Shown: positions 1,148 through 19,898 of the stretch, piece after piece
How positions within the stretch are numbered: position 1 is the first letter of the stretch
Layout: every line of letters begins with the position of its first letter
DNA from: Psammoneis japonica
Lineage: Eukaryota
Assembly (NCBI GenBank): GCA_008632985.1
Contig: QPGO01000146.1
Span: forward strand, 186,001-206,757
Direction: 5' to 3'
DNA length: 20,757 bases
Program-made: the position numbers and the translations under genes
The notes under the pieces: model-generated
Databases searched by the model: none
What the model saw: the letters and a program-made list of their open reading frames with translations, nothing else
What the model was told of the DNA's origin: nothing

Positions 1148-1418
1148 TCATTCTGCATCTTTTCTCTTGGCGACCGGTTCTCTTCGTTGTTGGGTTGGTC
1201 CTCGTTAGACCGCATGTAAGTTCGAGTATGTACGGACCTACCGTAAGCCCTTCGTTTCAAGCGTTGACAACCAGCTTTGATCCATCACTTCGTCCGATAT
1301 CCAGAACCTCGTCATTAGGTTATTCCTTGGTCGCTTTTTGAATAGACCAAAGCCCGAAGCCAGTTTTTGCAGAGTAACGTGTCGGGCAACAGCCAAGCGG
1401 CATGCCGACAGATCGATC
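1148..1418 (-). other. Possible 3' exons of a small or degraded spliced gene (..IDLSACRL..WLSTLETKGLR/EPVAKRKDAE*)
   Basis: Candidate 60-bp intron at 1241-1182 (GTAGGT donor, CTAAC branch, AAG acceptor) and a candidate TGTAG acceptor near 1419. I found no convincing start exon. Confidence 0.2.
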
Positions 1419-1804
1419 CTACAAAGGTTCACCACATTGTTGTGCAATACTCTTCCTTTGATGTATCAACGGTTCTATGACTGGCCACCTGAGCCAGGAG
1501 TATGCAAAAGCGGAAGCTGATTCAACAGAAACTCTGGATAACCTTGGTACTTGTGTTGGACAAGTCTTTTACAGCAATAATTTTCCGTTCACCACCAAGT
1601 CCTCCTTGGCTACCGCCGCATCCCTATCGGGTTCTTTTAATCATTGTTGTGATGTTGTTGAGCAGTGACGAAGCAAAACTACCCTAAGCGAGTGTGCATA
1701 ATGGTCATTTCCTTTTTAAAAATTGTTTCTTATACATTGATTAGTTTGATACTTCATTTTCTGTAAGATGATGTGAAAAGCCTATACCTAAAGGATAGGA
1801 CAAT

Positions 1805-2146
1805 CTAGACACAATTCGGATCATAGAAACACTCACAGCAACCGTCACATTTATCCTTTTCATCTGTGCAAAAGGCCTTTCCCTTGAAATGCCACCAGCG
1901 ACAAGACCAATAGTCCTTGGTGCATTGGTATTTGCATCTGCCAAGATCCCAAGTCGGGTCGCCGGGCGGAATATAGCACCACTTGACAAGGTAGAGTTCC
2001 CTATCATCTAGTTCTTGAAAATTGTCGGTGATACCCTGAGGCAGCATCTCATTGGATGACGAAGGAGAAGAGGCTCGAAGATGGTAGTCCTTTGTTCCGT
2101 TGGCACTAGCGATGAGAAAAAGAATGATGCTGGAAGAAAGCTTCAT
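1805..2146 (-). CDS. Secreted cysteine-rich peptide precursor (113 aa): signal peptide, HLRA..REL propeptide, 10-Cys mature domain
   Basis: MKLSSSIILFLIASANG is a signal peptide. A Ser/acidic prosegment ends in DREL (RXL-type site), followed by a W/Y/K-rich C-terminal domain with 10 Cys including CC. Normal Tyr usage, so it lies outside the mutated block. Confidence 0.8.
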   Translation of the reverse strand: MKLSSSIILFLIASANGTKDYHLRASSPSSSNEMLPQGITDNFQELDDRELYLVKWCYIPPGDPTWDLGRCKYQCTKDYWSCRWWHFKGKAFCTDEKDKCDGCCECFYDPNCV

Positions 2147-3118
2147 GAGGTTTGCAGGGTGTTGATGCGGCGTCTTGGGAGTGTTCTTTATTGTCAGTTT
2201 TGGATTTTGTGAGAGCGGTGCTGGTCCTCATCTGATCCGCATTTGAGGAGTCGTGGCGGGATGCGAACTGGGAACGAGAGTCCGAGTCTTGGATGAGGGG
2301 TCAAAAAGCGAACAGTGAGTCACGAGTCTGATTCACGGATAAAGCCCAAAGGTTTTTATCTCAGCTTCCGGAATGAGTGTCCGTTGAGTCTTTCCTGGCT
2401 AGAGTGGACAGTGATCAGAGTGACTCTGTGGGCCATCAGGTCAGAATGACACATGCAACCAAGGAGAGATCTTGTCACAATTCATGGCCTGGTCAAAGGT
2501 CACAGTGGTCTCACACAGAACTTTTGCCAAAAAGGCGGCAGCTGTGCTGTCTGCTTCACCAGAGTTTCGCGAGCAGGGATGAGGTCATGGCACACAGTGC
2601 TGCTGGAGACTTCAGCTCAGATGCCCAGACAATTGAGTGACTGGCATGGAAGAGGCAGCATCCAGAGCTTTGTGCTTCAATGGTGCGGCGCGGGCACTTC
2701 AGCAGCAGTTTGAATGCCCAGAAGATTTCCCAAGAGCGCACTCATCTTGGAAGCAAGCTTGAAAACTGCTGCCCAAGCTTGTTGCAAAACAAACATGCCA
2801 ACCTTGACTTCAATCATCTTGACCTGCTTTTCTGCATCTGGTTTCCTCAAAGTGCTGCACAGGAAAGGTGCGCCAGGGAGGTTCTTGGGGGCTTCTCCTC
2901 AGCCTGCTGCCTGCAGCAGCGCAAGCTCTTGCGTTTTCAGCACTTTGTGTGCTCCAGCACCAAAGTTGGTCTCAGTGATGCTAGACAAGCAGGCTGCACC
3001 TGGCATCCAACTGGGATCTTGCTTTGTTCTGCTGGGTTGATGCACACTTTGCCCCCATGTGCTTGGCAGACAAGAGCCAGCTCTTCTTGTTGGACCTTCT
3101 TGTGTGTGCTTGTGCAGC

Positions 3119-3138
3119 GGGGGGGGGGGGGGGGGGGG
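3119..3138 (+). repeat. G20 homopolymer (poly-Pro on the minus strand: SPESSPPPPPPR)
   Basis: Twenty consecutive G read directly from the sequence. The length may be unreliable in the assembly. Confidence 0.9.
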
Positions 3139-4064
3139 CTTGACTCTGGAGAAAGTGCTGTTGGCTCTGGAGATGCTTCAAGTGGCAGCAAGTTTCTTTC
3201 TTCTTGCAGGGCTGTTTGCTGGCTGCAGACAGAACAAACAGGTGTCAGACACCTCTGTTTCCTTGTGGCGTTTTTCTGGCAAAACATTCATGTGGGAATT
3301 TTGTGCAACATCAAAAAAGAGATGAAGAGGTTGAATTAAAAAATGCAACAGAGACACACAAAAGTGCAGTGCAACATCAGGAGTGACAATGGCACCCAGG
3401 TGGGGATGAAAACAACATCCACGCTGTGATTTCAGGCACAGCGTGTGCACAACAACACAAACATGACAAATTTGGCTGATGCGCCATTTGGCTCACTCAT
3501 GTGGTCTGTCCAAGTGCTCCAGTTGACCACTCAAGATGATGCCATTGTCATCAACATTCCATGTGGTTGCTGCAAGCAACTCACACAGGAAATGTCAAAA
3601 ATGGCTGGTGGCAATGATGCCCTGAATTCAACTGCAGCCTGCATCCACTGTGAATGTGTGGGCACATGCTGTCTGCACTTGTCACTCACCATGTGACATG
3701 TCTGGTGCAGTTGTCACACACACACATTGATCAATGGTGTCACCAGTGGCGTGCCATTGTCAGCATTGAATGCTGCACAAAAAGCACGGGGACAACTCTT
3801 CTGTTGCATTTGTCTGTCTGTTGCCCACTTGTCTCATGGAACATGCGTGAAAGTTCCCATGCTTTGTGGTCTGTCCATGCTTCATCTGACAACTGTTTGT
3901 TCCTCTGACAACTGCTTGTTTTGCACACAGCCAGGTTGCTGCACACTCAGTCAGCTTTTGAGCACCTTGAGCTGCAGGAGGGGCTTGAGGCACAGCTCCT
4001 GGTGAGAGTTCCAAGCACAACTCAACATTTGCTGCACTGCTGCAAAAAGTGAGTTGGCTCACTC

Positions 4065-5819
4065 TCAAGACTGATGGCTGTGTCTCAAAATTCTGTCAAA
4101 CACACATTTCCTGCGCTGTCTTTTTTGGTTCCTTGTAAAGATGCTCAGGAGGAGTGAGAATCTCATCTTGCAGGTGCTGCACACCAGGGAGCTTTCCCTT
4201 CTCCAGCAGAGTGCAAGAAGTGGGCTGTCTAAGGCACAGTTGCCCCCAACAGCCAGGTGGCTCTGTCTCCTTCTCAGCAGAAAAAAAGTGTTGAAAACAT
4301 CATCAAAGACCACACGGTGTTGGGGAGCAATGTTTCTGATCTCACCCAAGCTGACAAAAAGATCAAGCAAGGCAAGAGCAAGGTTGCAGCTGAGGTGGCT
4401 TCTTTCCAGATGTGAGCGCTGGACTGAAGATGTCGTGTGCCAGGCATCCCCAGCAGGTGTGGACATCTCTCAAGCAATGGCAAGAAGGTGCTGGGGAGCA
4501 AGCAGAAAAGTTTGTTGGCGGCACCCAAGGGTGCTGGGAGCAAAGCAGACATGTTGTGCAGCAACACAATGTGATGCTGCCATGAGCAACAGCCCCCCCT
4601 TGCAGTGAGTTGACGTGTGCAAAGGAGTGCTGCTCTTGCCACAATGGAAGCTGTGGTCAGATGACAATTTGCACACCAAATGCACCACCCAGTGCAAACA
4701 CTTGGGCATTCTGAGCAGTGCCACAGCTGTTGTGCTGCAGCTGACCATGCCCAAGCTGAAAAAGAATCTGGGGGGAAATGCATTGCAGCAAATTGCATCC
4801 TCTGAGTCCCTTTGTGACAGGTGTTGCATGGCCAGCATGCTTGAGCCACCTTCAGGAATGGTGCATTTTGCCCCAACAATGTCAAAAAGGGCCAGCTGCT
4901 TGTTGCACAGAGGCAGGGGTTTCAAAGTCTTTCCGCTTCCACCATTGAGACAAATCTGGGTGTTGACCCACATTTCTTGTTTGTTGGGGTTGGTGGGCTT
5001 TGATGAAGACAGACAACAAGAAGAGCACCAAAGCACAAGAAGTCACACATTGCGTGGCTCCTCAAGCAACACAAAAGTTTGCCCCTGCCCCCCTGCTTCC
5101 TCATGGCAAGCTGGATCTCAAGAGCACAGCAAAGCATTTTGCACTTTTGGCCAGTTGTTTTGAGGACAGGCAACTCAAGACAAGCTGGAGCATGGCTTGA
5201 AACAACAGCAAAAAGCAAAGGTCAGACCTCACAAACTGAGCGCCAAGTTGCTTTGGGCAAGTGAGGAGGAGCTGTTCAGAGCTCATGGCTGGAAGCCCGC
5301 TGCAGAGATTGCACGCCCAGCCAACAACATTTGCAGCTTGGGGAGCACATGGTGTGGGGTCTTGTGCACAAGTTCTTGGAGTGCAGCCAAGAAAGCTGCT
5401 TGCAGCCAGCTTCAAAATGGTGCTGCCCTTGCTGCTGCCATCTTCTTGAGCTCCAACTCAGCCACTCAGCTTGCTGCATCTTTGGCCATTTGCAGCTTCA
5501 GCAGGGCTGTGCAGAGTTTCTTAATTTGAGACTTGAGAGTGGCTGGCTGCAGCACCAGATGGGCAAGTGCCCACAGCTTTGTAGATGACAGAAACCACTC
5601 TGCCTGCTTTGGTGGGTGATGACAGTGCAAGAACAGATGCAAGAGATGCACCCCTGGCTGAGGAAGCTTGTTTGCTGGGCCTTGTTCAGCAACACCACCA
5701 GAGGGACTTGGCTTGGTGATTGCACACTTTTTGGCCCCTCTTTTGCTCTGGAACTGCTGTCCCTTGTGCTGTTGTTTGCCTGGCCTGTGTGCCAGGGCTG
5801 CAGCCCCATTGCTTGACAA
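4065..5819 (-). pseudogene. Fossil long reading frame inside the mutated block
   Basis: ORFs 5466-5819, 4470-5036 and 4065-4466 share one minus frame and are separated by TGA stops, as expected from CGA->TGA. Some segments read as protein-like and helical: TLKSQIKKLCTALLKLQMAKDAAS*VAELELKKMAAARAAPF* and LALALLDLFVSLGEIRNIAPQHRVVFDDVFNTFF. Confidence 0.4.
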
Positions 5820-7789
5820 TGACCTGTGCTTGTCTTTCTCCTTGTCTGATGTGCTGCCACAGCTTCAGCCCAGTTTGGCAGCAGCAAAGGCAGCACTGGC
5901 AGTGCCAAAATGCAGTGCATCTTGAAAGAATGAGAGGGGGCTCATTTTTTGCCCTGTCACCAGGGGTGACAAAAGGGTCAAAAGGTGTGCAGCTGGCTGG
6001 CTTCAGGAGATGAGAGGCTTGTTGTTGGTGGTGGTGGGCTCCAGAAAAATCTCCAACTTTGAGCAGCAGAGATCTCTCAAGAAGAAGCTTGTTTGAGCAA
6101 TGCCCCTTGGCAAGCGCCAAGCCAAGCAATCCCTTGCTGACACCACACTGCTCCAGAAGCATTGCAGCCTTTGGGGAAAGTGCTCATGCACTGACTTTCT
6201 GTGAGCTTGGGACCCACCATTCTGCCCCCCAAGATCTTTTGTGCATGTGGGCAACAGAAAACTCCAGCCAAGGAAAAAGAGCTGCAAAAAGCATTGTGAT
6301 GCCAACAGCAGCTGCGATGCACCCCTCTTCAAATGCTTGCCACCTGGGCTTCCTGCTTGCATGCTTGCCCCAATGTTTGGGCTTGGGGCTGCCTTGTTTG
6401 CCCAATGCTGCACAATGACTTTCAGCCACAGTCAGAGAGAAAAGTGCATTTTGTTGCAATTTTTTTGCTCCTGGCACAGCTCCAGCCCAAAAGGTTTTTT
6501 GCCCACAGGGGCTCTGGGCTCCAGATGACCCTTTTTTGCACACAGCACCAAACAACTTCAGCCTTGCAGCTCAGTGTCAGCCAGCGCCACCTTGCAAAGA
6601 AACTTGGCCACAGTGCTTGTCCATGCAGAGTGCCATCATGAACCCTGAGGCAGCTGGCCACACTTTCTCAGCTTTGTGCACAAGAGATGCATTTGGCAGG
6701 GTCAAGCTGCCAAAAATTGCAAAAAATCATGCCCTTTGTGGGCTGCTGTGGCTGCACAGAAGAGCAACTTTTCACACCCCTGCATCACACCCTCTTTTTT
6801 TTCCCTTGCAAATCATCTGCTTTGGCATGCCAGCACCCAAGGGCTCAAAAAAGAGCTGTGTCACACAAAGAGGACACATCTGCCTGATGATGAAAACAAA
6901 GGCAAAGTGAGTGCCAGGTGCTGTGTGCCGCCAGCAGCACTTCCTTTTTTGTGAGTGCTTTGTCACATTGGCTGCTTCTTCTGGCTGAGGTGAGGCATTT
7001 GTGCATGGAAGAGCAGGCTTTGGACCAGTGCTGGTGTGCTGAGAAGTGGTTGTCAGGGGCACATGCACAGCCAGCAGCAGCCAACAAAAACATGCTTGTC
7101 ATTGCTGGCTGCAGGGTTTGCAATGGCTGCCATGCTGGCTCTTCTGGCATGCATCATCCTCAGCAAGATCATTGCATGACTTCTGCAATGTGGCGCACCT
7201 CAGCTGGAGTGCACCTGCTTTGAGAAAAAGCCAATGCAAAAAGTGCATTTGGACAACATGATTGCAGGCAGGACAAGTGCTGGGCACTCATGTTGCCAGC
7301 TGGGGGTGTCTGATGTTGCTGCTGCTGGGAGTCATTTTTGTTTGCAAGTGCTTCATCATGCTGGCCACTGCAGCATTTGCACAGCAAGACAGGGCTTGCA
7401 CCTGGCATTGTCATCTTCAAGCAGTGCTGGCAAAGCTGTGCAACAAGCTCTTGGTCAAGGGTCAAGCTTTGTGTGGAGAGCTGAGCAGGCTTTGGGGCCA
7501 TCAGAGGTGGCAACACAGTGGTTTCCACTTTCCTTTGTAAAATTTTTAATGTGCATTGTCAACATTGTTGACAAGCAGAATTGAAAAATTGCCAGCAAAA
7601 GTGCTCTGCAAAATGAAGCTGTTTCTTGAATTTCATCTGATGTCTCATTGACTTTTCTTGCACAAGCTTCAATCAAATGCATGCAATGTCAAATTTAATT
7701 GGGATCAAAATCCATTTTTTTTGTGATGCATGGTTTGGTTTTCTTTTGATCACAATCAATTTGAACTTGGTTTTAACTTTGTCCTCCTC

Positions 7790-8290
7790 ACTCACGTGCG
7801 TGTGTGTCTTTGCACGTGTGCAGTCTGCAGCACTTTGCGCACGCACGTGACCCACCTTCATTTTTCTTCATGTTTCCCAGATTTGCACAGCCCGTTGGTC
7901 CACGGCATTTTTAGTGTGTGTTTTGCATGCGCAATTTTCTGCACACTTCACAACAGTGCACCCTCTCCCCAAAGTTTGAAAAACAAGAGCGTGCGCTGTT
8001 GTGACTCACGCGGATCCTGCGTGTGGTCGCAAATCTGCAAATCGACAACCGGCCATGGCAGTGAAAGACTTTGCCCCATTGGCCGATGACAGCGGCTCAA
8101 CGTGTGGTGAAACCTGCCATCCTTCTGGTTGGTCAAGATGGGGTTTTATTTGGGTGCAGCTTGAATTTTGTGATTGCGAGTGTGCTGTCACGAAGCTGCC
8201 GTGTCCAGAATGCTGAGCTCTGGCATGTTGTTGTGTGTTGTGTGCATGCACGTCACAAACCAGCTTTTCTGCAGCGTTGGCATGATCGCG
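7790..8290. promoter_or_regulatory. CpG-retaining island inside the mutated block; possible former promoter upstream of a fossil minus-strand gene starting near 7682
   Basis: Many CG sites remain (cacgtgcg, gcgcacgcacgtga, cacgcggatcc, atcgacaaccgg, gatcgcg), but only 2 TA were seen. The promoter role is inference from position. Confidence 0.35.
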
Positions 8291-8324
8291 CATGCCAGAG
8301 TTTTGCATCCAGAATCATCACAAG

Positions 8325-8618
8325 TTGCCACAAATTACACTGTTCAAACAAGGCATGTGCAAAAAGAGGTTCATTGGTTTTTGATGCATTCGCCAACAAC
8401 ACATCCGTCTTCTCCAATTTCTGTGTCCAGACCCAGAAAGACTGCAGGCGGTGCTTGTTCCTGCAGCTCTCAGAATCACACATGTGAAAAGTTCTTTGCC
8501 ATGCATGAAACTCTTCAAAAAAGGCATGCACAAAAAGAGCTTCATTCATTTTTGATGTGTTCACTTACGTTGCATCCGTCTTCTCCAATTTCTGCACCCA
8601 GATCCAGAAAGACCGCAG
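8325..8618 (+). repeat. Diverged direct repeat, ~123 bp units at 8325-8447 and 8496-8618 (period 171 bp)
   Basis: Ungapped alignment with shared cores aaggcatg..caaaaagag and catccgtcttctccaatttctg..ccagaaagac. Many mismatches are CA<->TG or CG<->CA/TG. Confidence 0.9.
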
Positions 8619-8765
8619 AGGCAGAGAGTGGGGAGGCAACCCATTGGAGGTTGCCTGAGTTGTTGGGCTCATTTTAAAAGGCTTCCCAAGTCTCTCTGCT
8701 GTTTGTGGTCAAGAGCAGGGGGGGTCGACTGCAACAATTGCAGCAGCTGCCAATTCCATGTCGAT

Positions 8766-9098
8766 GGGTCGGGAACCAGCAGCAGAAGCTCCCAAATTGG
8801 CAGTGGCAGATGCACCTGCAAGTCTGCATTGCAGCTTCAATTGGTTGCTGTTGTTGTCCTGTGCACTCTCTCACAAAGCATTTTACATTCATGTTTGCAA
8901 TGAACAAGGTGGATCAGAGCAATGTTGCTTCACACCTGACTGGCCCAGAATCAGCTTTGATGCGGGGTCGGGAGCCGGCAGCAGAAGCGACCAAATCTGC
9001 CACGGCGGATGCACCAGCAAGTCTGTGTTGCGGTTTCAATTGGTTGCTGTTGTTGTTCCATGCACTCTCACAAAGTGTTTTGCACTTCTTTGCAATGA
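8766..9098 (+). repeat. Diverged direct repeat, ~135 bp units at 8766-8903 and 8965-9098 (period ~199 bp)
   Basis: Shared gggtcggga.cc.gcagcagaagc, ttcaattggttgctgttgttgt and tttgcaatga. Mismatches are concentrated at CA/TG/CG/TA positions. Confidence 0.9.
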
Positions 9099-11013
9099 TT
9101 TGCCATTGTGAACAGAGTGTCGCTCATTTGAAGGCGTTGCGTTTGGATTGCTTGCCATGTCTCAGTGTCAAGATTGTGCTCTCAACTGCGTGGGAGTGCA
9201 AGCAGAGTTCAAAGAGGTCCAAGCTTGCGCTTGCGAAGGCAGTGGTGCATTTCACTTTTGCTGCAGTGAGCTCTGGCTCTGCCATTTTGTGCATCAGCTT
9301 TGCACCTTTCTCTTGGAATTCAGTTGTTGCCTCTTTGAATTCATTGACAAGCCTTTGTCTCCATCTGTGTCATTTAAATTAAGCGCAAACAACAAAATGG
9401 AATGTTCACAATGCAAACAATTTTAAATTGCAGGTTTTGCAGGAATGGAGGGTGGGCACTCTCACAGGGAAAATGGTTGGCTGTTTCACAGTGAATGGTG
9501 TTGCCTCACAGGACAGTCACGGGCTCCACAGCAACAAGTTTGTCTTTCACAGTTAACAAATTGTCACCACGCACACAACTGGCAAGGTTTGAAACCACAA
9601 AATTTTTAACTGTGACAGATTAAAAAATTCACCATGAGAAAGTTGGTCTGATCACTGTGTTGCGCGCTCTGATGGCTGCACAGACAAACATCGCGCCATT
9701 GCCAAAAAAACACAGCCAATGCAGAGCACAAGATTTGTCATGGCTTCCATGCTTGCTCTTTTGCAATGCTTTCAGGAGACACATGTTTTTGCCTTCTTTG
9801 CAAATTTGTTTTGCAGCTTGCTCCCACACACCACACTCAATGCCACTGTCGTCAACACAGAAAAGTCTCTCCCCAAGGGGCATTTGCACCATGTTTTGGC
9901 TGGCATGCTCCACCCCAAAAAGCCACTGCACAATGAACAGCAGCAGCTGGGCTGAGAATGACAAAGCAAGCTGGCCAACTTTTTTAAGCTGAAGCTCACA
10001 ACCTGCAGCCACACGACGAATTGTGAGTGCAGCACACACAGCAGCATGCTGGTGCTTTCATCGACAGGAGCAAGAAAAAACTGACAAGACAATGGCTTGA
10101 AGTCTTCAACAGCAAACACAATCAGAGCACATTGGCCAGAGCCAAAAGCTGCAACAGGGTGCCAGCTCAGCAGACATGATTGTGAAAGAACGCAACTTGG
10201 CTGCTCCCATTGCAACATGAGCGGATCCACTGCAGCAGTTTTCTTTGGCTGCTGGTGTGTGATGATGGCATAAAGCCAAGCAGCAATGCACAAAACAAGG
10301 CACTTTTTGTGACTGGATTGACTTGTTTCAGATCAACAGAAACTTTCAATTGAGCAAAATTTGGACATGGGACAACAGAAAGGAGCACAGTGAGAGAAGA
10401 AGCTCAACTTTGCTTTGCACCCACCAACAACTTTTTCAGATGACTTTGCGGCTGCCCCCACCCTGTCTCCCACAACATGTAACTGAAGACAAAGAGCAAG
10501 CTGTCATCAAGGATTGCATTGGTGATTGGTTGATTGTTGGTTGAGGGACTCTGGGCAGAGCATGAGGCTCGTGTTTCTCGCTTCCAAAATCATCCAAGAA
10601 CCTTGTCGAGGTTTGAAGCATCGCACGGACCAAACATGGGTGCAAATCCGTGCGAAGCCGATTCTGGCGTTATGAATCTCGTTTGCATGTTTTGCAATGT
10701 ATACTTGACACTACTTCCTGTCCGCATCATTTCGATGGTCGAACGTTTCTCATCAACTTCGCAGCTTTGCCGATGACTGCCCTAAAAACTTTCTACGTTT
10801 TTGGCCCGGATTGCTCCCCAGGATGCGGGTGTTACCATAGTGTAGTTAATTGTTATTCTACGAACGGTCGATTTGAAATGCAGCTTTTTCCGATGAACTT
10901 CCATGAGTCGGCTCTTTAGTCGCAGTTTAAAGCGATTTCTGAACTAGATCTGCATCCAAGAGAAATCAAAAGCTCTATATCACATTTCTATTTAATCGAG
11001 TTGTTCTCATTGT

Positions 11014-11753
11014 TTAGAACAATCCAAAGAACTTCTTCTTATCGTCTCCTCCTTTCTTGAAATCATTGACATTGGGAGCCTTGTAGTTTTTGGAAAACTT
11101 GGGTGCGGCTCCCATGGCGGATTCCGGTCCTCGCTTGGCACGGCTGCCGCTCCAGTCAAGGCCTTCCCCAAAGCCCAGAACGGAAACGGATTGTTCCTTG
11201 CGGTAGCCGCCGGCGGCGTACGCCTTGTCGCTCGCCAACCATGTTTTCTTGTTGCGGGCATTCTTGACATCGGAATTGTCCCAAGATCCTCCGCGTTGCA
11301 TGTACTGTACGTAAGTTTTGAAATAGCATTGTACAAAAAAATATTGGGTGTAAGAGACGACACTCGTGATGACAACGCCCATTCATTGTTACATCCAATC
11401 AATCATATTCTTCTACTTACAGGAATATCTTCCTTTCGGATCTTTCCGGATTTCAGTTTTTCTTTGGCATTAAACATGGGCATGAGATGCGTCGCTTCGC
11501 CTCGCTCCATGGCTTCTTGAAAGGATTGCATAGATCTTGACTTGAAACCTCTTGGTCCCAAACCACCCAAGTTTCCCGGTCGCAGACGCTTTCGTTCTTC
11601 TTCCTTGAATTTCTTGTAACTCTCGGGAGTAAAGCCATCGGGAACATATGCAAAGAGCGCCGTACTACTACGTGTTGGTGACGACGACGATGCAGTAAAC
11701 CCACTCGATACGCCAACAAGAGCAGCAAAAAGAGCAATGCAAACAGTCTTCAT
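11014..11753 (-). CDS. Plastid-targeted hypothetical protein, 207 aa (exons 11753-11421 and 11304-11014)
   Basis: Signal peptide MKTVCIALFAALVGVSSG followed by F and an S/T-rich transit peptide (ASAFAP-like bipartite signal). A 116-bp phase-0 intron at 11420-11305 (GTAAGT...TACAG) joins KEDIP to YMQRGGSWDNSD. The C-terminus is KKKFFGLF. It resembles a diatom/algal uncharacterised family (from memory, not searched). Confidence 0.88.
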
Positions 11754-12293: not shown

Positions 12294-13890
12294 ATGGATA
12301 GTAGCAAGAGACTTAAAATCGGTGAAAGTGACGGCCCTCCACGAAAGGAAGAAGAACAAGAGCCTGATGGTTTCAATGTCCTGTTTGAAAACGAGGATTT
12401 GCTGTTGCAAGTCTTGTTGAGAACCGACGCGGAGGATCATGGGCCGCTTCGTTGTTCCTGCAAGACCTTTCAACGTGTTCTCAATTCCAGCGTCTTTCGA
12501 CAAGAACGCTTGAAGAAAGAGTGGGCACAAGTGCATGTCCCTGGGCAGAAAATGGTTCTGGACGGGAACTGTATGGATGATGGGTTTCCCGTGATGCATC
12601 ACGAGGCCAGTATTTTTGTCGACGGAAAAGAGGCTGGATCAGCCAAGCTGGTCTACGTTAATCGGCGTGTTAAGGATGTCCTTCATGTTCCATTTTTGAA
12701 TTATGTGGAAGACTGGTTCGAAGACGGAGACGATGATCTGCATTATGCGGCGAACCTGTTCTTACCGATAGGGCTCGTCCCAAGTTGAATTCTCTTCGAA
12801 AGGCGACAAAGGGGAAAGATCACACCAAGAAAAAACTCTTGTTTATTAAAAGTTTGGATCTATCGGAAGAGTATCGTCGTCATACCTGGGTGGGAGCATG
12901 TGCGCTTGGATGCATGCGTGAGTTTGAATTTGGACGAGGTGACTTGATTATTGATTGGGGGCATTGCCATGTACAGAGGTGATCGTCGCCGACAGCTTGT
13001 CTCCGAGGACGACTTTCGTGATCAGGAACGGTGGGAGGCTCTTATGGAAAATGAAGGAGCTTTGTCTGAGGAGGAAGAAAAGGAAATGGCGGATTTGGGA
13101 GCCAAGCTCGAGGCTCTTGACGTGGCAGACTTGAGGCCGTTTTTACGCGCTGGCTTTGAGCAGCCGGACGAAGTGATTGCTCGCAGGAACCATTACTTTG
13201 TCTTTTGTACGATCGACAAGTTAGTGTGTGAGCCTTCCAGAATGATGACTGGTCAAGAGGCAGAGGCGCTTCCAATCCAGCCTCTAGTGCCTGGTCCAGA
13301 GCCCGAAGAGGATTGTGCCGACTTTAGGGAGGACGACGAGGCAAGCCACGACGAGAGCGATTGGTCGGACGCTTGCTTTGATTATTAAAGAGAAACTGCT
13401 TCGGATGATTTCACTAAGGCTTTGCAGAGATGGGAGCATGTTCAGAATCCAGTGGATTTTGAAGACTTCTCCAAGGAAGACCTGAACGAAATGGAATTGA
13501 ATAGCACGGATGGCGAATCGCGTTTTCGGAAACGAGTAATGGTAATAGAATCACGTTCTTCATCACGGATGCCGCGGGCGAGACAGCCCTTGGACAGTAT
13601 CGCTACAACTCGAGGGACACTATTTTTACCCGGTGAATCATGAATCGTTTCCTATTACGCCAACCGGAGCTGATGGCCTCAACTTTGCATCCTTATGTCT
13701 TGATACCTCGGGCTTTGATAATTCGTCTTCTAGTGATGATCCGGACAAGGATGTTTTATTGGGAAGACTGCAGCGATTGCTGATGTAATCCCCTCTGCGG
13801 CATGAAGAGAGATTTTGAATTCTTTGAAGGTGTCATTGAAGATCTCTACCAATGCTACTTATCCGGACGAGGATGATTCGGGCGGGTAAG
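12294..13890 (+). pseudogene. F-box-like plus GNAT-like protein, disrupted (pseudogene or assembly indels)
   Basis: F-box-like segment LFENEDLLLQVLLRTDAEDHGPLRCSCKTFQRVLNS. GNAT-like motifs LLFIKSLDLSEEYRRHTWVGACAL and LRPFLRAGFEQ. A -1 frameshift near 12762 and a +1 in the G5 run at 12957-12961 restore ...TDRARPKLNSLRK... and ...IIDWGIAMY.... An in-frame TAA at 13386-13388 is followed by coding-like sequence, including DAAGETALGQYR in a shifted frame. The 3' end is uncertain. Confidence 0.6.
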
Positions 13891-14284
13891 CACTTCGACT
13901 TTCGTGATATCTCTACGGTAGGATGAAAACGAAGTGGGATGATTATGCGATCTCAAACTCGTGACTGACATTCGCTCCACGACTGAACCGATTGAACCAC
14001 GACTGAAAATATTCAATGTTCGGCGACAGCAGGTTGGCGATGAGAAGCGGCAACTTCACACGAACAATCGAAGGCTATTTCATGTGTGCACATACGATGG
14101 TGACACCTTTCCTCATACTTAAAAAGTGTCACTCCCATTACGTGGTCGGAGTCCCGGTACGATAGAAATGCGAACCCATCACTACGGAGTTGCGTAAAGA
14201 ACATGCCGCAAAGAACAAAAACGCGAGTCTCACAAAAACAACAATAGCAACAAACGACCTAGCAACAAGAACAACAACGACACC

Positions 14285-15207
14285 ATGCGCTTCAACATCT
14301 TACTGCTCATGCTTTTTGCCCCTCGTGACGGGTCGCCGACGATGAGGTGGTTCTAGGTGAAGGTACAATTTTCACGGGAGGCGAGTCTAACCACACGCAT
14401 AGCGGTGCATGCCGTTTGAAACTCCAGCGTGATGGCAACCTGATTGTCCGACGCCGTGGCCCCTTTTGGACCGTCCCAAACGACCCTGATCCCAGGGAGG
14501 ACTCTATCAGTTGGACCAGTGGTCATCACCAAGTTGGAAGTTATCATGCGAGGCTTCAGAACGATGGAAACCTTCAAGTCATTTTCCACGGATCGGATGC
14601 TGAAGAAGTTGTCTTTTCAACTCATGTGGTATCCTTTCCTGACAATGAGCCGGCTCCGAGTCATGATTTACTCTTTACCGACAACTGCATTCTGAAAATT
14701 CAGAGAAAGTTTCCTGACGGGAGTAAGGACATCATTTGGCGAAACATCCACGGCTGGCTTGATAACTTTTCAGCCGACGAGTATCCCGGACTGGACAATG
14801 TAATGCAAAAGGGCGAGTTTTTTTCGTATCCCAATCAAAACCACGGAACGGTATGTGGCACGGGAGCCAACTTTTGTATGGAGGTACCCTTTTCGCTTCG
14901 ACTCCAACAGGATTGCAACCTGGTGAGCTTTGTCGGACACGACTTTGGGGATGCGGCTGCCGTGGTGTGGTCGGCGGGTGTGGCGCGGCCCCAGTTTGAC
15001 AATTGCTATCTCTTGGTGGACTCGAACGATGTAGCGCTTTATGAAGGTGATTTTGATCCAACGCTTCCGCCCAATTCGAACCGCCCCGGAAAGTATTGGA
15101 GTGTGCCACAGAGTTTTTTTGATGACGCTGGCGGGTTCCAACCGGGTACTTCTACGTACCAGATTCTCATCAACAATGCAGGCCAGATGTATTTGGATTG
15201 GGATTAG
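14285..15207 (+). CDS. Secreted bulb-type (GNA-like, B-lectin) domain protein
   Basis: QxDxNxV-type motifs LQRDGNLIV, LQNDGNLQV and LQQDCNLVSF. ATG at 14285 follows a CAA-rich leader. The signal peptide MRFNILLLMLLPLVTVADDEV is restored by removing one T (~14315) and one G (~14331) from homopolymers, guided by the paralog at 17044. Confidence 0.8.
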
Positions 15208-17043
15208 GGAGGAATCAGAATGATGAGAGTAATTGTTCGGTTGACATTACGCGCTTGTATTATACGAAACAAAGTTGAATTGGGATATTGAGCCAAGAAG
15301 ACGGAGAGTGAGCGACGCGGAGGATGTCAGCAATGCGAATGCGCCAGGAGGATGAGATATTGTGATACTTTCACCTTCAGCATTCCTCTACGTCTATGAA
15401 TGATAGTAGCGTGATAAAAATAGGATGATGATTAGAAACAAAAGCATTCACGAGTAGCGATAAACCTTACGTACCTTCCTCGCCCTTCATCGTGTTGTGC
15501 GCCAAACGCCAAACAACCACACCGCGATGCGGCTCGCTGCTGCGTGGCGCGGACAGACAACATATCATATCTTTTTGCGATTGCGTTGCTTGCTTTCGCA
15601 TCAGTTGTCAACGCTCACGTCTCACGTCTCACGTCACGATGGCTTTGACAACCTCAGCTCTGACAGCCCGATGCATGCCACCATATTGTACTCTATGCAA
15701 TAGTCTTTCGATCAGTACGACTGTGGCAAGTTGGTGGCATTTGAACTTCAATCTGCACTATTGGGCTTGCGCAGAAGGGGCACGGGGCGCACTCTGAACT
15801 ACAAATAATGTAATTGTACGAATAGCTTTCGACGTTGAAAACGGGAGCCATTTCTCCGAAGGATGGGAGAAGCAAATGCAAGGTACTCAAAGGACGGATA
15901 GCATGCCCACAATCGAGTACGAGCCAAACCGGGTGCTTGAAAGGAGATGGCTTGCAAGTTTGAAGCTACAGAAATAAGCCTTTTTGCAAAGAACAAAGCT
16001 CATTTTGTTCATGTCGAGGAAGCGATATCTTGTGTGGATTGGGAGGGATGCAAATCTCACATGGCAACAAGGACAGCCCTGAAGTTTGTTTTCACTGCGT
16101 CTTTCTTTTCAGAGGACAAGGATGATTCGCGTTAGCAGATCTCACCTTTGTTTACCCCGGTGAATAGTTTTGCCTTTTTTCCGACAAATCCACTATTTGG
16201 CTCACCTACTTAGTACTCCTGCAACTCTCTCTCTAGAGAGATTGAAAATTCTGGAAGAACGAGTGGATAGCGGAGCTGAGAAGGCCACATTCAAATAATG
16301 CACTTACAGAGGCGAGCTGCTGTAACTGAAAATGATGCGTGGCATGGAGCGGCAATAGGAGTAGGTCCCGGCCAGTTGTCAAAACTTTACGGCAAGAGAA
16401 TCGACGCCCGAGTGTCACTTTATTTCGTTGTCAGTCAGGAACATTTTCTTTTGCTATTCTTCGCCTATCTTCGATGGTCCAACTTGAGCCTACAGCATCA
16501 TATTGACATCAACGTGGATCACCCCGTCTTGTTTCCTTGACATTCAGATGGAGAGATGAATTGTAGTCACAAGCAGCCGCCGCACGGACGAAACCATTGA
16601 CGAAGACACCAAATGTCAAGTTCTCAATCCCGACCGGGGCCCTCAACCGAGATGACCTCTCATCTAGCTCTCTAGAAGAGCTAAAGAGTAGACGAGGACG
16701 AATTGGAATAGCGAATGTGGATTACTGTATGACGGAACAGTGGTGAATGAGACACCCGCAATAAGACTGCGAAGGTCATCCTCACCCACAACTGCGGCTC
16801 CGTGCGACCCACGACCCGCAACAATAACCACGATTGATTTCACAAAATCGGAAGCATGATGACGAGTGGTCGTGCACAATCACATTTCTCTCACCTTCAT
16901 AGACTCAAAAATTGGTATTCGACAATCGCTCTATGAGTGGTTGTCAACATGGTGTCACAGTCCCGTCACGAGCTTATGCGAACCTTCCGTACTGTCTCAT
17001 TGAATCAACAACAACATAAACAACGAAACAAAGACAGGACAAT

Positions 17044-19898
17044 ATGCGATTCTATCTCTTACTGCTTGTACTTTTGCCTCTTTTGGCTCTCGCCGATGAG
17101 GTCATTTTGAGGAAGGGTACAGTGTTGACGGAGGCGAGTCTCTTCATACCAGTAATGATTCCTGCCGCTTGAAGCTCCAGCGCGACGGCAACTTGATTGT
17201 TTATCGACACGGTCCTTTTGCGCCCACCCCGGGCAACTCTGATGCCTTTGACGAGGTCATTAGTTGGACCAGTGGTCGCCACCAAGTAGGAAGCTACTGT
17301 GCGGAGCTTCAGGATGATGGGAACCTCCAAGTCATTCGTCCGGCGGAGTCAGGCGATGAAGTGGTGTATTCGACACACGTCTATCCGTCCCCTTCAAACA
17401 AGCCAGCTCCTACTCATGAGCTATTATTTACCGACAACTGTATTCTTGAAATAAAGAGGACCTTTTCTGACAAGAGCTACGATATTATATGGGAGAATAT
17501 CCATACTACGCTGGATAACTTTTCGGCAGAGAAGCGTCCCGGAAGGAACAACGTGTTGCAAAAGGGCGAGTTCTTTTCGTACCCAGCTAACAACCATGGG
17601 GCTGTTTGCGGCACCGGAGCCAACTTTTGCATGGATGTGCCCTTCTCAATTCGGCTTCAACACGACTGCAACCTTGTGACTTTTGTCGGACACGACTATG
17701 CAGATGCGGCAGCCATTGTGTGGTCGGCGCGTGTGCCTCGCCCCAGTTTTGACAAGTGTTATCTGCTGCTGGACGTGAACGACGTGGCACTTTACGAAGG
17801 AGATTTTGATCCTACTCTGGCGCCGAATTCGGACCGCTCTGGAAAGTACTGGAGCGTGCCGGAGAGTTTCTTTGACGAGTTGTCGACCGATGGATCCTCG
17901 AAGTACCAGATTCTCATAAACAATGAGGGCAAAATGCATCCTACAACTATGAGACCACCCACTATTGCTCCCACCACTCCGCCTCCTATCACCATTGGTC
18001 CGACAACAGATTCGCCCACGCCATCCCCAACATCTTACAGCGACTTTCTGAGCGGGCTGTTGGCAGAAAGAAGTCCTTGGTCTGTGGATGCTCTGAAAGA
18101 GCCCAGTTCGGCCCAAACCCAAGCTTTCGATTGGCTCTTGGCCGATGAAGTTACCAGTGATTTGGAAGAGCCTGATGAAAATCGCATTCTTCAACGATTT
18201 GCCCTTGCAACGATCTTTTACGCCATGGAGGACGAAGATTTTATGGACGAAACGTGGCTGGAAGCGACAGACGAGTGCACTTGGAGCGGTGTCGATGCAT
18301 GTGGCTCTGAGGGTGGGTTGAAGAATCTAACGATTGATCAAGATAACATTAAAGGCCTGCCGCCGGAACTCGGCCTATTGACGAACCTAGGTGCGATCAT
18401 ATCTCGTTAAGGATTGCTTCTTTCCGCTTGTGCATTCGATCTAACACGATGTTTTCTTCTCGTCGAAAGTACACTTTCATGTGTCTTCGAATGTATACGA
18501 CATCAACGTTGCACCACAAACCAATCTTTTGCCTTCAACCATAGGTCTGCTAACTGACATGAGTAAGTTATTATGTTTGGACCTAATCTCTTCCGGCTCA
18601 AATGAAAAACGAAAAACATTCACACGGTACTTGATTCCATGTCCTACTTTCTAGGGCGATTTGACGTGGGGTACTACGTGGATGGCGCGCCTCTAGAAGC
18701 GGGATACACTGGAGGACCAATCCCCCCTGAGGTGGGCCAGCTGACGCGTCTAAAGGAGCTGCGTTTCGGTGGAGCGTTCACGGGCACGTTACCTCAACCG
18801 ATTTGTTCCCTCGATGAATTAGAACAAGTCAAAGTCGACTGTGACGATTTCTTTTGTGGCGACTGCAGGTATTGCCCAAATTGTTTCGACTCTTATGAGA
18901 TTTCCGTTGAGGCAATGTCGGTGGTCGATCTGGGACCCGATGGAGAATTTGACTTTCTCCAGGAAGCTGGTGGTGAAAATAAGAATCAGTTTTATGTGAA
19001 TAATAGGTTTCTCACGATGAATGACCGAGAAGAATGCGTTGTGTTAGAAAGCCAAAGATTGCCGCCAATACCGCTAGGCCATTCCCTAGCAAATGCCGTG
19101 CTCGCTGGATCCATTATTGGGCAGGGATACAGCGGCGAGACACCGGTGATCCAGGTCTTTGCCTATGCTGGAAACGGCATTGTTGAAGTTGACGACGTCG
19201 ACGCGACAAATAATGAGCAGAACAGAATCGAGCTTCTAACACAGGACGGCGGCGTGTTCAATTTGGATATTAAAGAGTTCGTTCGGGACCTGTATGATCA
19301 AGGAGAGAAGTACTTGGGATTGGCCATGAGTCAGAAGAGCGTCGGAGCATACTCCAGGGTTGCAGACCTGGCTGTCACTCTAGGCATTGATGTGGACTGT
19401 GAGGCTGTCATTTGCTCTTGCTACGAGGCCGCCGTATGCAACTTGGAACTGCCTCCCAAACCAACGGACGCGCGTCATTATGTAATTTACTATGATGATG
19501 AAAGGTGCATAATGCTCAAAGACGGCAACACATCTGAGTGCAATCCTTTGGTCATTGGAAACTGCAGTGATAGCATTCCTGGTTATCCCGCAGAAGCACT
19601 GTGGTGGAGAGACGAACACGGCTTCTGGCACCCATATCTAGACAGTAGCATGTGCATGCAAGCTGGGTGTGGAGAAGAAAGTGTTGCGGAAGGATCTACA
19701 ATTCATATTGCCAAGTGTGATATCAACAACAAGAGCCAATGGTTCGGGAAGTCTGTATGGTCCAGCGACAATTTCTCGATTGAGGAGAGGCCAGACCTCT
19801 GTGCCACTGGAAATAACGTAGGCGATGAAGTCGTTTTGAAAACTTGCAGCTCTGACCATGACTCTTGGAATTTCAATACCGGTGCATCTCAAGACTGA
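17044..19898 (+). CDS. Secreted multidomain protein, ~894 aa: B-lectin, Pro/Thr stalk, LRR with Cys caps, beta-sandwich-like module, ricin-B lectin (exons 17044-18390, 18470-18562, 18655-19898)
   Basis: Signal MRFYLLLLVLLPLLALA. One G is missing near 17090 relative to the paralog. LQRDGNLIVY lectin motif. LRR cap AQTQAFDWL..RILQRFALATIFY..ECTWSGV..C. Plant-type LRRs LPPELGLLTNL, LPSTIGLLTDM, IPPEVGQLTRL, FTGTLPQPICSL. Phase-1 introns at 18391-18469 (GT..CTAAC..AAG) and 18563-18654 (GTAAGT..TAG) keep the frame. C-terminal CIM..IGNC..ALW / CMQA..IAKCD..SQWF repeats. Confidence 0.85.

Follow-up and report, generated by a model that had tools for sequence, protein, structure and literature searches.

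What kind of mutation makes two copies of a repeat differ in such a way that CA in one copy stands opposite TG in the other, and from which dinucleotide did both copies start? This question is raised by two direct repeats in a window of 20,757 nt, the whole stretch of DNA that was analysed. A preliminary description of this pair proposed that CA/TG double differences are to be expected when a self-complementary dinucleotide, CG or TA, mutates independently on opposite strands in each copy, that the process followed the duplication and worked on both strands, and that TA may be a source in addition to CG, since TA in one copy faces TG in the other.

The repeat pair and its differences

The reported pair, a second pair of direct repeats upstream of it and the TA step in question are located as follows:

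8766-8903, plus strand: first unit of the reported pair (D4a), direct repeat
8965-9098, plus strand: second unit of the reported pair (D4b), direct repeat
8325-8447, plus strand: first unit of the second pair (D3a), direct repeat
8496-8618, plus strand: second unit of the second pair (D3b), direct repeat
8884-8885, plus strand: residual TA in the context TTAC, opposite TG at 9081-9082; one of the 25 TA of the surrounding island

The reported units start 199 nt apart and are 80.4% identical over 138 columns (blastn). Their global alignment of 140 columns contains 24 mismatches, 16 transitions and 8 transversions, and every difference that had been listed between the copies is found in it, including TA at 8884 versus TG at 9081. 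CA stands opposite CG at 8777/8976, 8807/9006 and 8832/9031 and TG opposite CG at 8804/9003, and at three sites CA and TG are swapped (8827/9026, 8860/9059 and 8879/9076). At all four sites that have CG in one unit and CA or TG in the other, CG is lost in D4a and kept in D4b. The second pair, 440 nt upstream of the first and 78.9% identical, contains five CA/TG swaps and four CG-versus-CA/TG sites.

Inverted complements connect the units of the two pairs: 8385-8401 corresponds to 8849-8865 and 9048-9064, and 8571-8591 to 8993-9013. Treating the D3 units and the reverse complements of the D4 units as four versions of a single unit was rejected, as the alignment was unconvincing with a column identity of 61%. 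A sensitive local alignment search of the window for a third D4-like unit found none, with best scores of 16-17 at a shuffle maximum of 12. The translated ORF 8678-9379 was used to search for further copies among proteins, both at near and at shorter lengths, with no match in either case, and a 21-mer scan of viral_contigs gave none either. Two loci in metagenome_contigs, L001 and L002, came up in a degenerate 22-mer scan and were rejected as chance matches because the match spans just 22-25 nt and their composition is ordinary.

Are three swaps more than chance would place in such a pair? As null model, transitions and transversions, as many of each as observed, were distributed randomly over copy 1 in 20,000 simulations. 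The reported pair has its 3 swaps versus 0.48 simulated (p 0.007), and both pairs together have 8 versus 1.0, a number that was not reached in any of the 20,000 simulations. The control, two paralogous segments of genes located beyond the island (507 nt with 147 mismatches), shows 2 swaps versus 1.95 simulated (p 0.60). Likewise, of the double mismatches at adjacent positions, CA/TG accounts for 8 of 18 in the island's two pairs versus 2 of 51 in the control. The swaps are best read as a self-complementary YR step that was resolved independently in each unit, on one strand or the other, and this reading of an excess that is specific to the island dates the process to a time after the duplication and assigns it to both strands. 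Both proposals of the preliminary description are thereby borne out, albeit some of the differences may predate the insertion of this copy.

Does the pair also tell whether the ancestral steps were CG or TA? Differences between CG and CA/TG occur at the random level (7 versus 6.8 expected), and differences involving TA are scarce in the island pairs (3 versus 8.8 expected; P for 3 or fewer 0.015). The strongest alternative to a TA source is CpG decay alone, in which every swap was a CG deaminated on opposite strands and the TA at 8884 was derived by a G-to-A change in D4a. With 2 CG shared, 8 sites of CG versus CA/TG and 8 swaps, the counts indeed agree with a CG-only model of a single rate (G 0.41, p 0.52); D4b still has CG at the four sites where D4a has CA or TG; and TTAC at 8884 is a half-protected context, as described below, in which a new TA could persist. 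When the rate is taken from the shared and the single-decayed CG sites alone, however, 4.0 swaps are predicted and 8 are observed (P for 8 or more 0.051). TA ancestry of part of the swaps is at most suggested by the pairs. As far as the pair itself is concerned, the proposal of TA as swap source is not supported, since the all-CG model fits, and the TA/TG difference at 8884/9081, although present, stays unpolarised, as had been noted before. At the level of the surrounding island the same proposal fares better.

Composition and extent of the island

Dinucleotide profiles place the repeats within a long island of unusual composition, whose parts, none of them assigned to a strand, are:

2401-10670, no strand: island depleted of TpA and CpG and enriched in CpA/TpG
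2401-2940, no strand: left margin, TA gone and CG partly lost (0 TA, CG o/e 0.27)
2941-7489, no strand: old, mostly single-copy core (TA o/e 0.02, CG o/e 0.08)
7490-9683, no strand: nested high-copy element (TA o/e 0.10, CG o/e 0.46)
9684-10569, no strand: right part of the old island (TA o/e 0.05, CG o/e 0.18)
10570-10670, no strand: right margin, CG normal and TA gone (0 TA, CG o/e 1.36)

Over its 8270 nt the island contains 25 TA, 106 CG, 947 CA and 939 TG. Measured between 2501 and 10500, the ratio of observed to expected (o/e) is 0.05 for TA versus 0.56-0.58 in the flanks and 0.20 for CG versus 0.93-1.0, with CG ranging from 0.08 to 0.46 across the parts of the island, the right margin apart. 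CA (1.92 versus 1.11-1.24) and TG (1.75 versus 1.15-1.18) are in excess. The summed share of TA, CG, CA and TG is nearly the same inside (24.4%) and in the flanks (23.7%), which is the outcome that transitions inside YR steps would leave. TA is absent from the 540 nt of the left margin (Poisson P 7e-10 at the flank rate), where 10 CG are found, and from the 101 nt of the right margin (P 0.019), where 9 CG are found.

The very low TA ratio together with the unchanged YR share indicates a process directed at TA and not CG decay only. Such a process is strongly supported as real at the level of the island, although the pair alone is no proof of it, and to this extent TA as a source of swaps is upheld. 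CpG decay alone is unlikely, as it leaves unexplained the loss of TA across the island, the TTAA survival described below and the deficit of TA differences between the units.

The island shows no convincing coding signal, and no ORF in it looks like a real protein. Each frame contains 51-79 stops, a long ORF is missing, and 3-periodicity is at most 2.75, compared to 5-9 in the flanking genes. None of the 106 island ORFs searched against Pfam (22 and 84) reached a curated cut-off; the best match, zf_PCFS4, was rejected with 21.7 bits at a cut-off of 27, and the roughly 6 kb outside the nested element gave no domain match either. Rfam and tRNA scans gave no match. The old part of the island also harbours a run of 20 G at 3119-3138.

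Sequence context of the surviving TA steps

Which TA steps have survived? Of the 25 TA in the island 13 are TTAA, whereas the flanks have 23 among 488 (Fisher p 3e-10), and 23 of the 25 residual TA are part of TTA on at least one strand. With the flanks as baseline, the surviving fraction is 0.85 for TTAA, 0.08 for TTAB, 0.09 for VTAA and 0.011 for VTAB. These classes multiply as expected for two strands that are struck independently, with one neighbouring base blocking. The survival pattern allows two motif readings, whose predicted products are opposite. For TTGB:TCAB the ratio is 262:134 and for VTGB:VCAB 514:530, an odds ratio of 2.02 compared to 1.27 in the flank (z 2.64), and the complementary product classes give 1.97 versus 1.28 (z 2.42). 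The products favour 5'-TAB-3' with A mutated or, equivalently, 5'-VTA-3' with T mutated. The tRNA A34 deaminases TadA and ADAT2-ADAT3 target an A preceded by U33, hence a UpA context. We know of no rule by which A at position +1 blocks the reaction for TadA/ADAT2-ADAT3, APOBEC or ADAR enzymes.

Editing of the APOBEC or ADAR type leaves strand-coordinated clusters. Tracts of TG or CA of this kind were not seen in the island, and the order of TG and CA is random (runs z -0.97; chi2 37.6 for 33 bins).

Could the composition be inborn or selected, the island being foreign or specialised DNA that disfavours TA and CG because of stop codons or because of UpA and CpG in RNA? TA and CG are scarce in many RNA viruses and mRNAs (PMC3829696), and the ancestral make-up of the island is not fixed by the flank baseline. 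This explanation is nevertheless highly unlikely. TA ratios of 0.00-0.10 across 8 kb are extreme, long ORFs and coding periodicity are missing, and TGA shows no avoidance when base composition is considered. Moreover, the swaps between duplicates show flux in place through CG or TA states, and the multiplicative survival of TTAA, TTAB and VTAB is the pattern predicted by independent hits on two strands.

Alternatively, the changes could have been made in RNA, by ADAR-like A-to-I hyperediting of the dsRNA of a retroelement followed by reverse transcription and insertion. The preference of ADAR for U on the 5' side of the edited A (Mettrop et al., bioRxiv 10.64898/2026.01.13.699255) would suit the TpA target. 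Against this reading, AA is not depleted in the island (o/e 1.30), although ADAR-type editing would also accept A on the 5' side, strand-coordinated runs of TG or CA are missing, the repeat shares its altered composition with the single-copy core and the margins, and a reverse transcriptase domain was not found among the 106 ORFs compared with Pfam. In Bigelowiella natans, furthermore, the corresponding mutations appear in place during clonal growth, within an integrated virus of single copy number (bioRxiv 10.64898/2026.01.13.699255). An origin through edited RNA is thus scarcely credible.

The nested element and its copies in the genome

How many copies of the reported units exist? Copy number was assessed by aligning Logan contigs of run X1, possibly the sample behind the assembly, to the window. 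Across the 20-kb stretch 1634 contigs aligned, 286 of them at identities of at least 99%, 333 at 95-99%, 602 at 90-95% and 413 below 90%. The summed word depth stays at about 50-77 in most parts of the window and rises to 1225-7484 in the bins between 7338 and 10005; 17 contigs diverge before 7499. Inverted arms of 31 nt (81%) are located at 7490-7520/9653-9683 and, colinear with these outer arms, of 17 nt (82%) at 7537-7553/9616-9632. The segment 7490-9683 is read as a high-copy, TIR-like, non-autonomous element of 2.2 kb that is nested in an older island. Within 2941-7489 the X1 word depth is about 52-77 except in bin 3336-4002, where a depth of 835, compared to about 55-77 around it, points to a second, moderately repeated piece within the old core.

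Three X1 contigs join 9088 to 8894, and further joints connect 8921 to 8766 and 8591 to 8424, indicating that the numbers of the 199-nt and 171-nt units differ in other genomic copies. The reported pair is part of a tandem array with variable copy number in a high-copy element; it is for this reason that some of its differences may be older than the present insertion. This copy differs from the others at 477 places by transition and at 219 places by transversion.

Individual differences offer a glimpse of the process. Among the differences listed (40 of 729), two lie in the single-copy core: at 4136 the window has TA and an X1 contig CA (GTAA to GCAA), and at 4114 the window has CG and an X1 contig TG. 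These are differences between strains or cultures of exactly the two expected kinds. Also among these 40 of 729, the window has CA at 7690 (TCAA) where 25 of 25 contigs have TA (TTAA), and CA at 9418-9419 where 14 of 14 contigs have TG. The TAB rule is followed in two of three such glimpses, namely at 4136 and, if TA is ancestral there, at 8884/9081 (TTAC/TTGC). It is broken at 7690 if the majority state is ancestral, with TTAA elsewhere and TCAA here. An artefact of assembly or base calling can be dismissed: modified bases may cause systematic miscalls on some platforms, but the X1 contigs reproduce the sequence of the island with 8 differences over 2073 nt and 3 over 1109 nt, albeit X1 is possibly the assembly's own sample, and random miscalls of CG should also yield TA, and TA is absent.

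TA loss versus CG loss

Are the losses of TA and CG the work of one process or of two? The loss of TA is faster and wider than that of CG: the loss of TA extends to the nested, younger element and to both margins, all of which have kept more CG than the old core. The survival of TCGA is 0.14, so CG lacks a protection like that of TA in TTAA, which argues for two separate processes. GCGC is undepleted inside the island, with 20 occurrences versus 17.9 expected.

The products are unevenly distributed over the classes. From flank to island the skeleton sums change from 905 to 1224 for [YR]C and from 1025 to 858 for [YR]T, showing that the flank is an imperfect baseline. The class TGC|GCA gains 401, above the prediction from the TA and CG counts of the flank, and TGA|TCA gains just 14 despite a loss of 237 from CGA|TCG, the largest class of CG loss. 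Either a different ancestral composition, e.g., AT-rich foreign DNA, or a 3' bias favouring C may account for these uneven classes; another option could be a CG process that prefers TCG.

A proposed model of two transition processes

How, then, did the two copies come to differ? The reported repeats are probably members of a tandem array in a nested TIR-like element, situated in a non-coding island of 8.3 kb, located between host genes, on which two context-specific transition processes have acted, both leading toward CA/TG. Both would act in place on DNA, on either strand and across the whole island. The first process would change T:A to C:G at TpA, giving TpG or CpA, and may consist in deamination of adenine or in modification of thymine; it would be the process that was measured directly in B. 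natans. The island suggests a longer motif for it, with C, G or T next to the mutated A on its 3' side (5'-TAB-3'); with such a motif TTAA would be protected on both strands and survive. The second process would change C:G to T:A at CpG, most simply through deamination of 5-methylcytosine in silent DNA that would have to be methylated at CpG, and would be slower and narrower in its footprint than the first. Since either strand could be hit first at each CG or TA, CA would often end up in one copy and TG in the other. The composition, the swap excess, the surroundings of the remaining TA and the copy number are observed, and the direction of change in the island is inferred.

In a more specific form, which we put forward only tentatively, the island may be the saturated end state of chromatin-directed editing of T:A to C:G at the DNA level, with a TAB motif and TTAA immune, hitting the two strands independently at each site, blind to copy number and acting faster and over a wider range than CpG decay. 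In its boldest form, one machinery, e.g., a dual A/C deaminase, would remove both palindromic YR steps, an idea that arises because the losses of TA and of CG both feed TGC|GCA and avoid TGA|TCA.

Comparison with known systems

Hypermutation of TpA to TpG or CpA in integrated viral and foreign DNA has been described in B. natans (Mettrop et al., bioRxiv 10.64898/2026.01.13.699255). Of the 302 nuclear mutations found in 15 mutation-accumulation lines, 231 fell into two integrated viral regions, and 230 of these 231 were A to G or T to C, all at TpA, at rates about 1000-fold over background. The genome contains 124 clusters of 1-kb windows in which TpA is depleted and CpA+TpG is enriched, and an ADAT2-like adenine deaminase was proposed as candidate (bioRxiv 10.64898/2026.01.13.699255). 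Seven consecutive 1-kb windows of the present sequence (3001-10000) pass the cut-offs used for these clusters, with rho of 0.00-0.10 for TA and 1.72-2.00 for CA+TG. As in the B. natans clusters, both strands are affected, the DNA is silent or unannotated and includes transposon-like sequence, and single-copy targets are possible. The island is nearer to the end state than the NCLDV region in B. natans (TA o/e 0.05 versus rho 0.45) and, unlike the signature described there, it is also depleted of CpG. The flanks have shares of 3.9% TA and 14.3% CA+TG, close to the means of 4.1% and 13.7% given for B. natans CDS (bioRxiv 10.64898/2026.01.13.699255), a likeness that is compatible with the same source and is no test of identity.

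The island adds a near-saturated example to the kind of hypermutation recently described; its link to the B. natans experiment would be one by signature, which matches. If the source is B. natans, the island may be among the 124 clusters listed for that genome. The terms CpG, TTAA, trinucleotide and flanking do not occur in the main text of the preprint, whose supplementary Tables S2 (mutation contexts) and S10 (list of clusters) may bear on these points. The TAB/TTAA rule, the co-depletion of CpG and the order of rates go beyond what that main text contains. A literature search found no other natural precedent for directed hypermutation of A:T to G:C. CG methylation has been reported in B. 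natans, and a search of the literature on cytosine methylation in Bigelowiella found nothing usable.

Other systems share part of the picture. Fungal RIP resembles the process in the island in that it introduces context-specific transitions in the manner of a genome defence, degrades repeats on both strands and leaves a dinucleotide footprint. RIP changes C to T mainly at CpA, thereby creating TpA and depleting CpA and TpG (PMC2621366). The direction in the island is opposite (TA o/e 0.05, CA 1.92, TG 1.75), and its most depleted part, 2941-7489, is at single-copy X1 depth except for one bin, although RIP is confined to duplicated sequence; RIP was rejected on both grounds. Decay of CpG in methylated repeats, as in vertebrate transposons, produces the same CA/TG double differences, low CG and normal flanks, and in the island CG is indeed depleted, with TG and CA in excess, in a manner confined to the silent region. 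Such decay leaves TA untouched, whereas the island has lost TA more completely and more widely than CG. Restriction by deaminases, APOBEC on DNA and ADAR on dsRNA, likewise hypermutates invading sequence.

What would follow for other genomes? To date, a single preprint of 2026 describes directed hypermutation of A:T to G:C in silent eukaryotic DNA, and the island would show the residue of the TpA process after long action. It would add details that can be tested: a third motif base with TTAA spared, the independence of the strands, a footprint that ends within a few hundred bases of the neighbouring genes, and the order of rates relative to CpG decay as read from the nested younger element. 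The TAB rule would narrow the search for the enzyme. If the editing reading is true and the source is not B. natans, the system would be present in a second organism. For annotation, the process would explain why open frames occur on all six strands without recognisable genes.

Flanking genes

What surrounds the island? Contigs of a second run, X2, skip 177-275 (99 nt) and 11305-11420 (116 nt), intervals with the ends CT..AC. They are GT-AG introns on the minus strand, belonging to the genes that flank the island, and their presence indicates that the window is eukaryotic. The X2 contigs are transcript-like and lie on both flanks; most bins of the island have an X2 depth of 0, the uncovered part being no evidence either way.

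Several flanking genes show weak similarities. The gene at the left edge of the island (1805-2146, minus strand) has a weak chromodomain match with 14.4 bits versus a cut-off of 25.1 (E 0.036), and the ORF 12294-12788 on the plus strand matches F-box with 20.0 bits, compared to a curated cut-off of 20.5 (E 6.5e-4). A paralogous tandem gene pair at 14279-15192 and 17038-17939 is 72.8% identical over 925 columns at a spacing of about 2753 nt, and its members give weak B_lectin matches of 17-18 bits, below the cut-off of 32.4. The ORF 18639-19898 has a weak ricin-B match and a single relative in the protein collection, at 56%.
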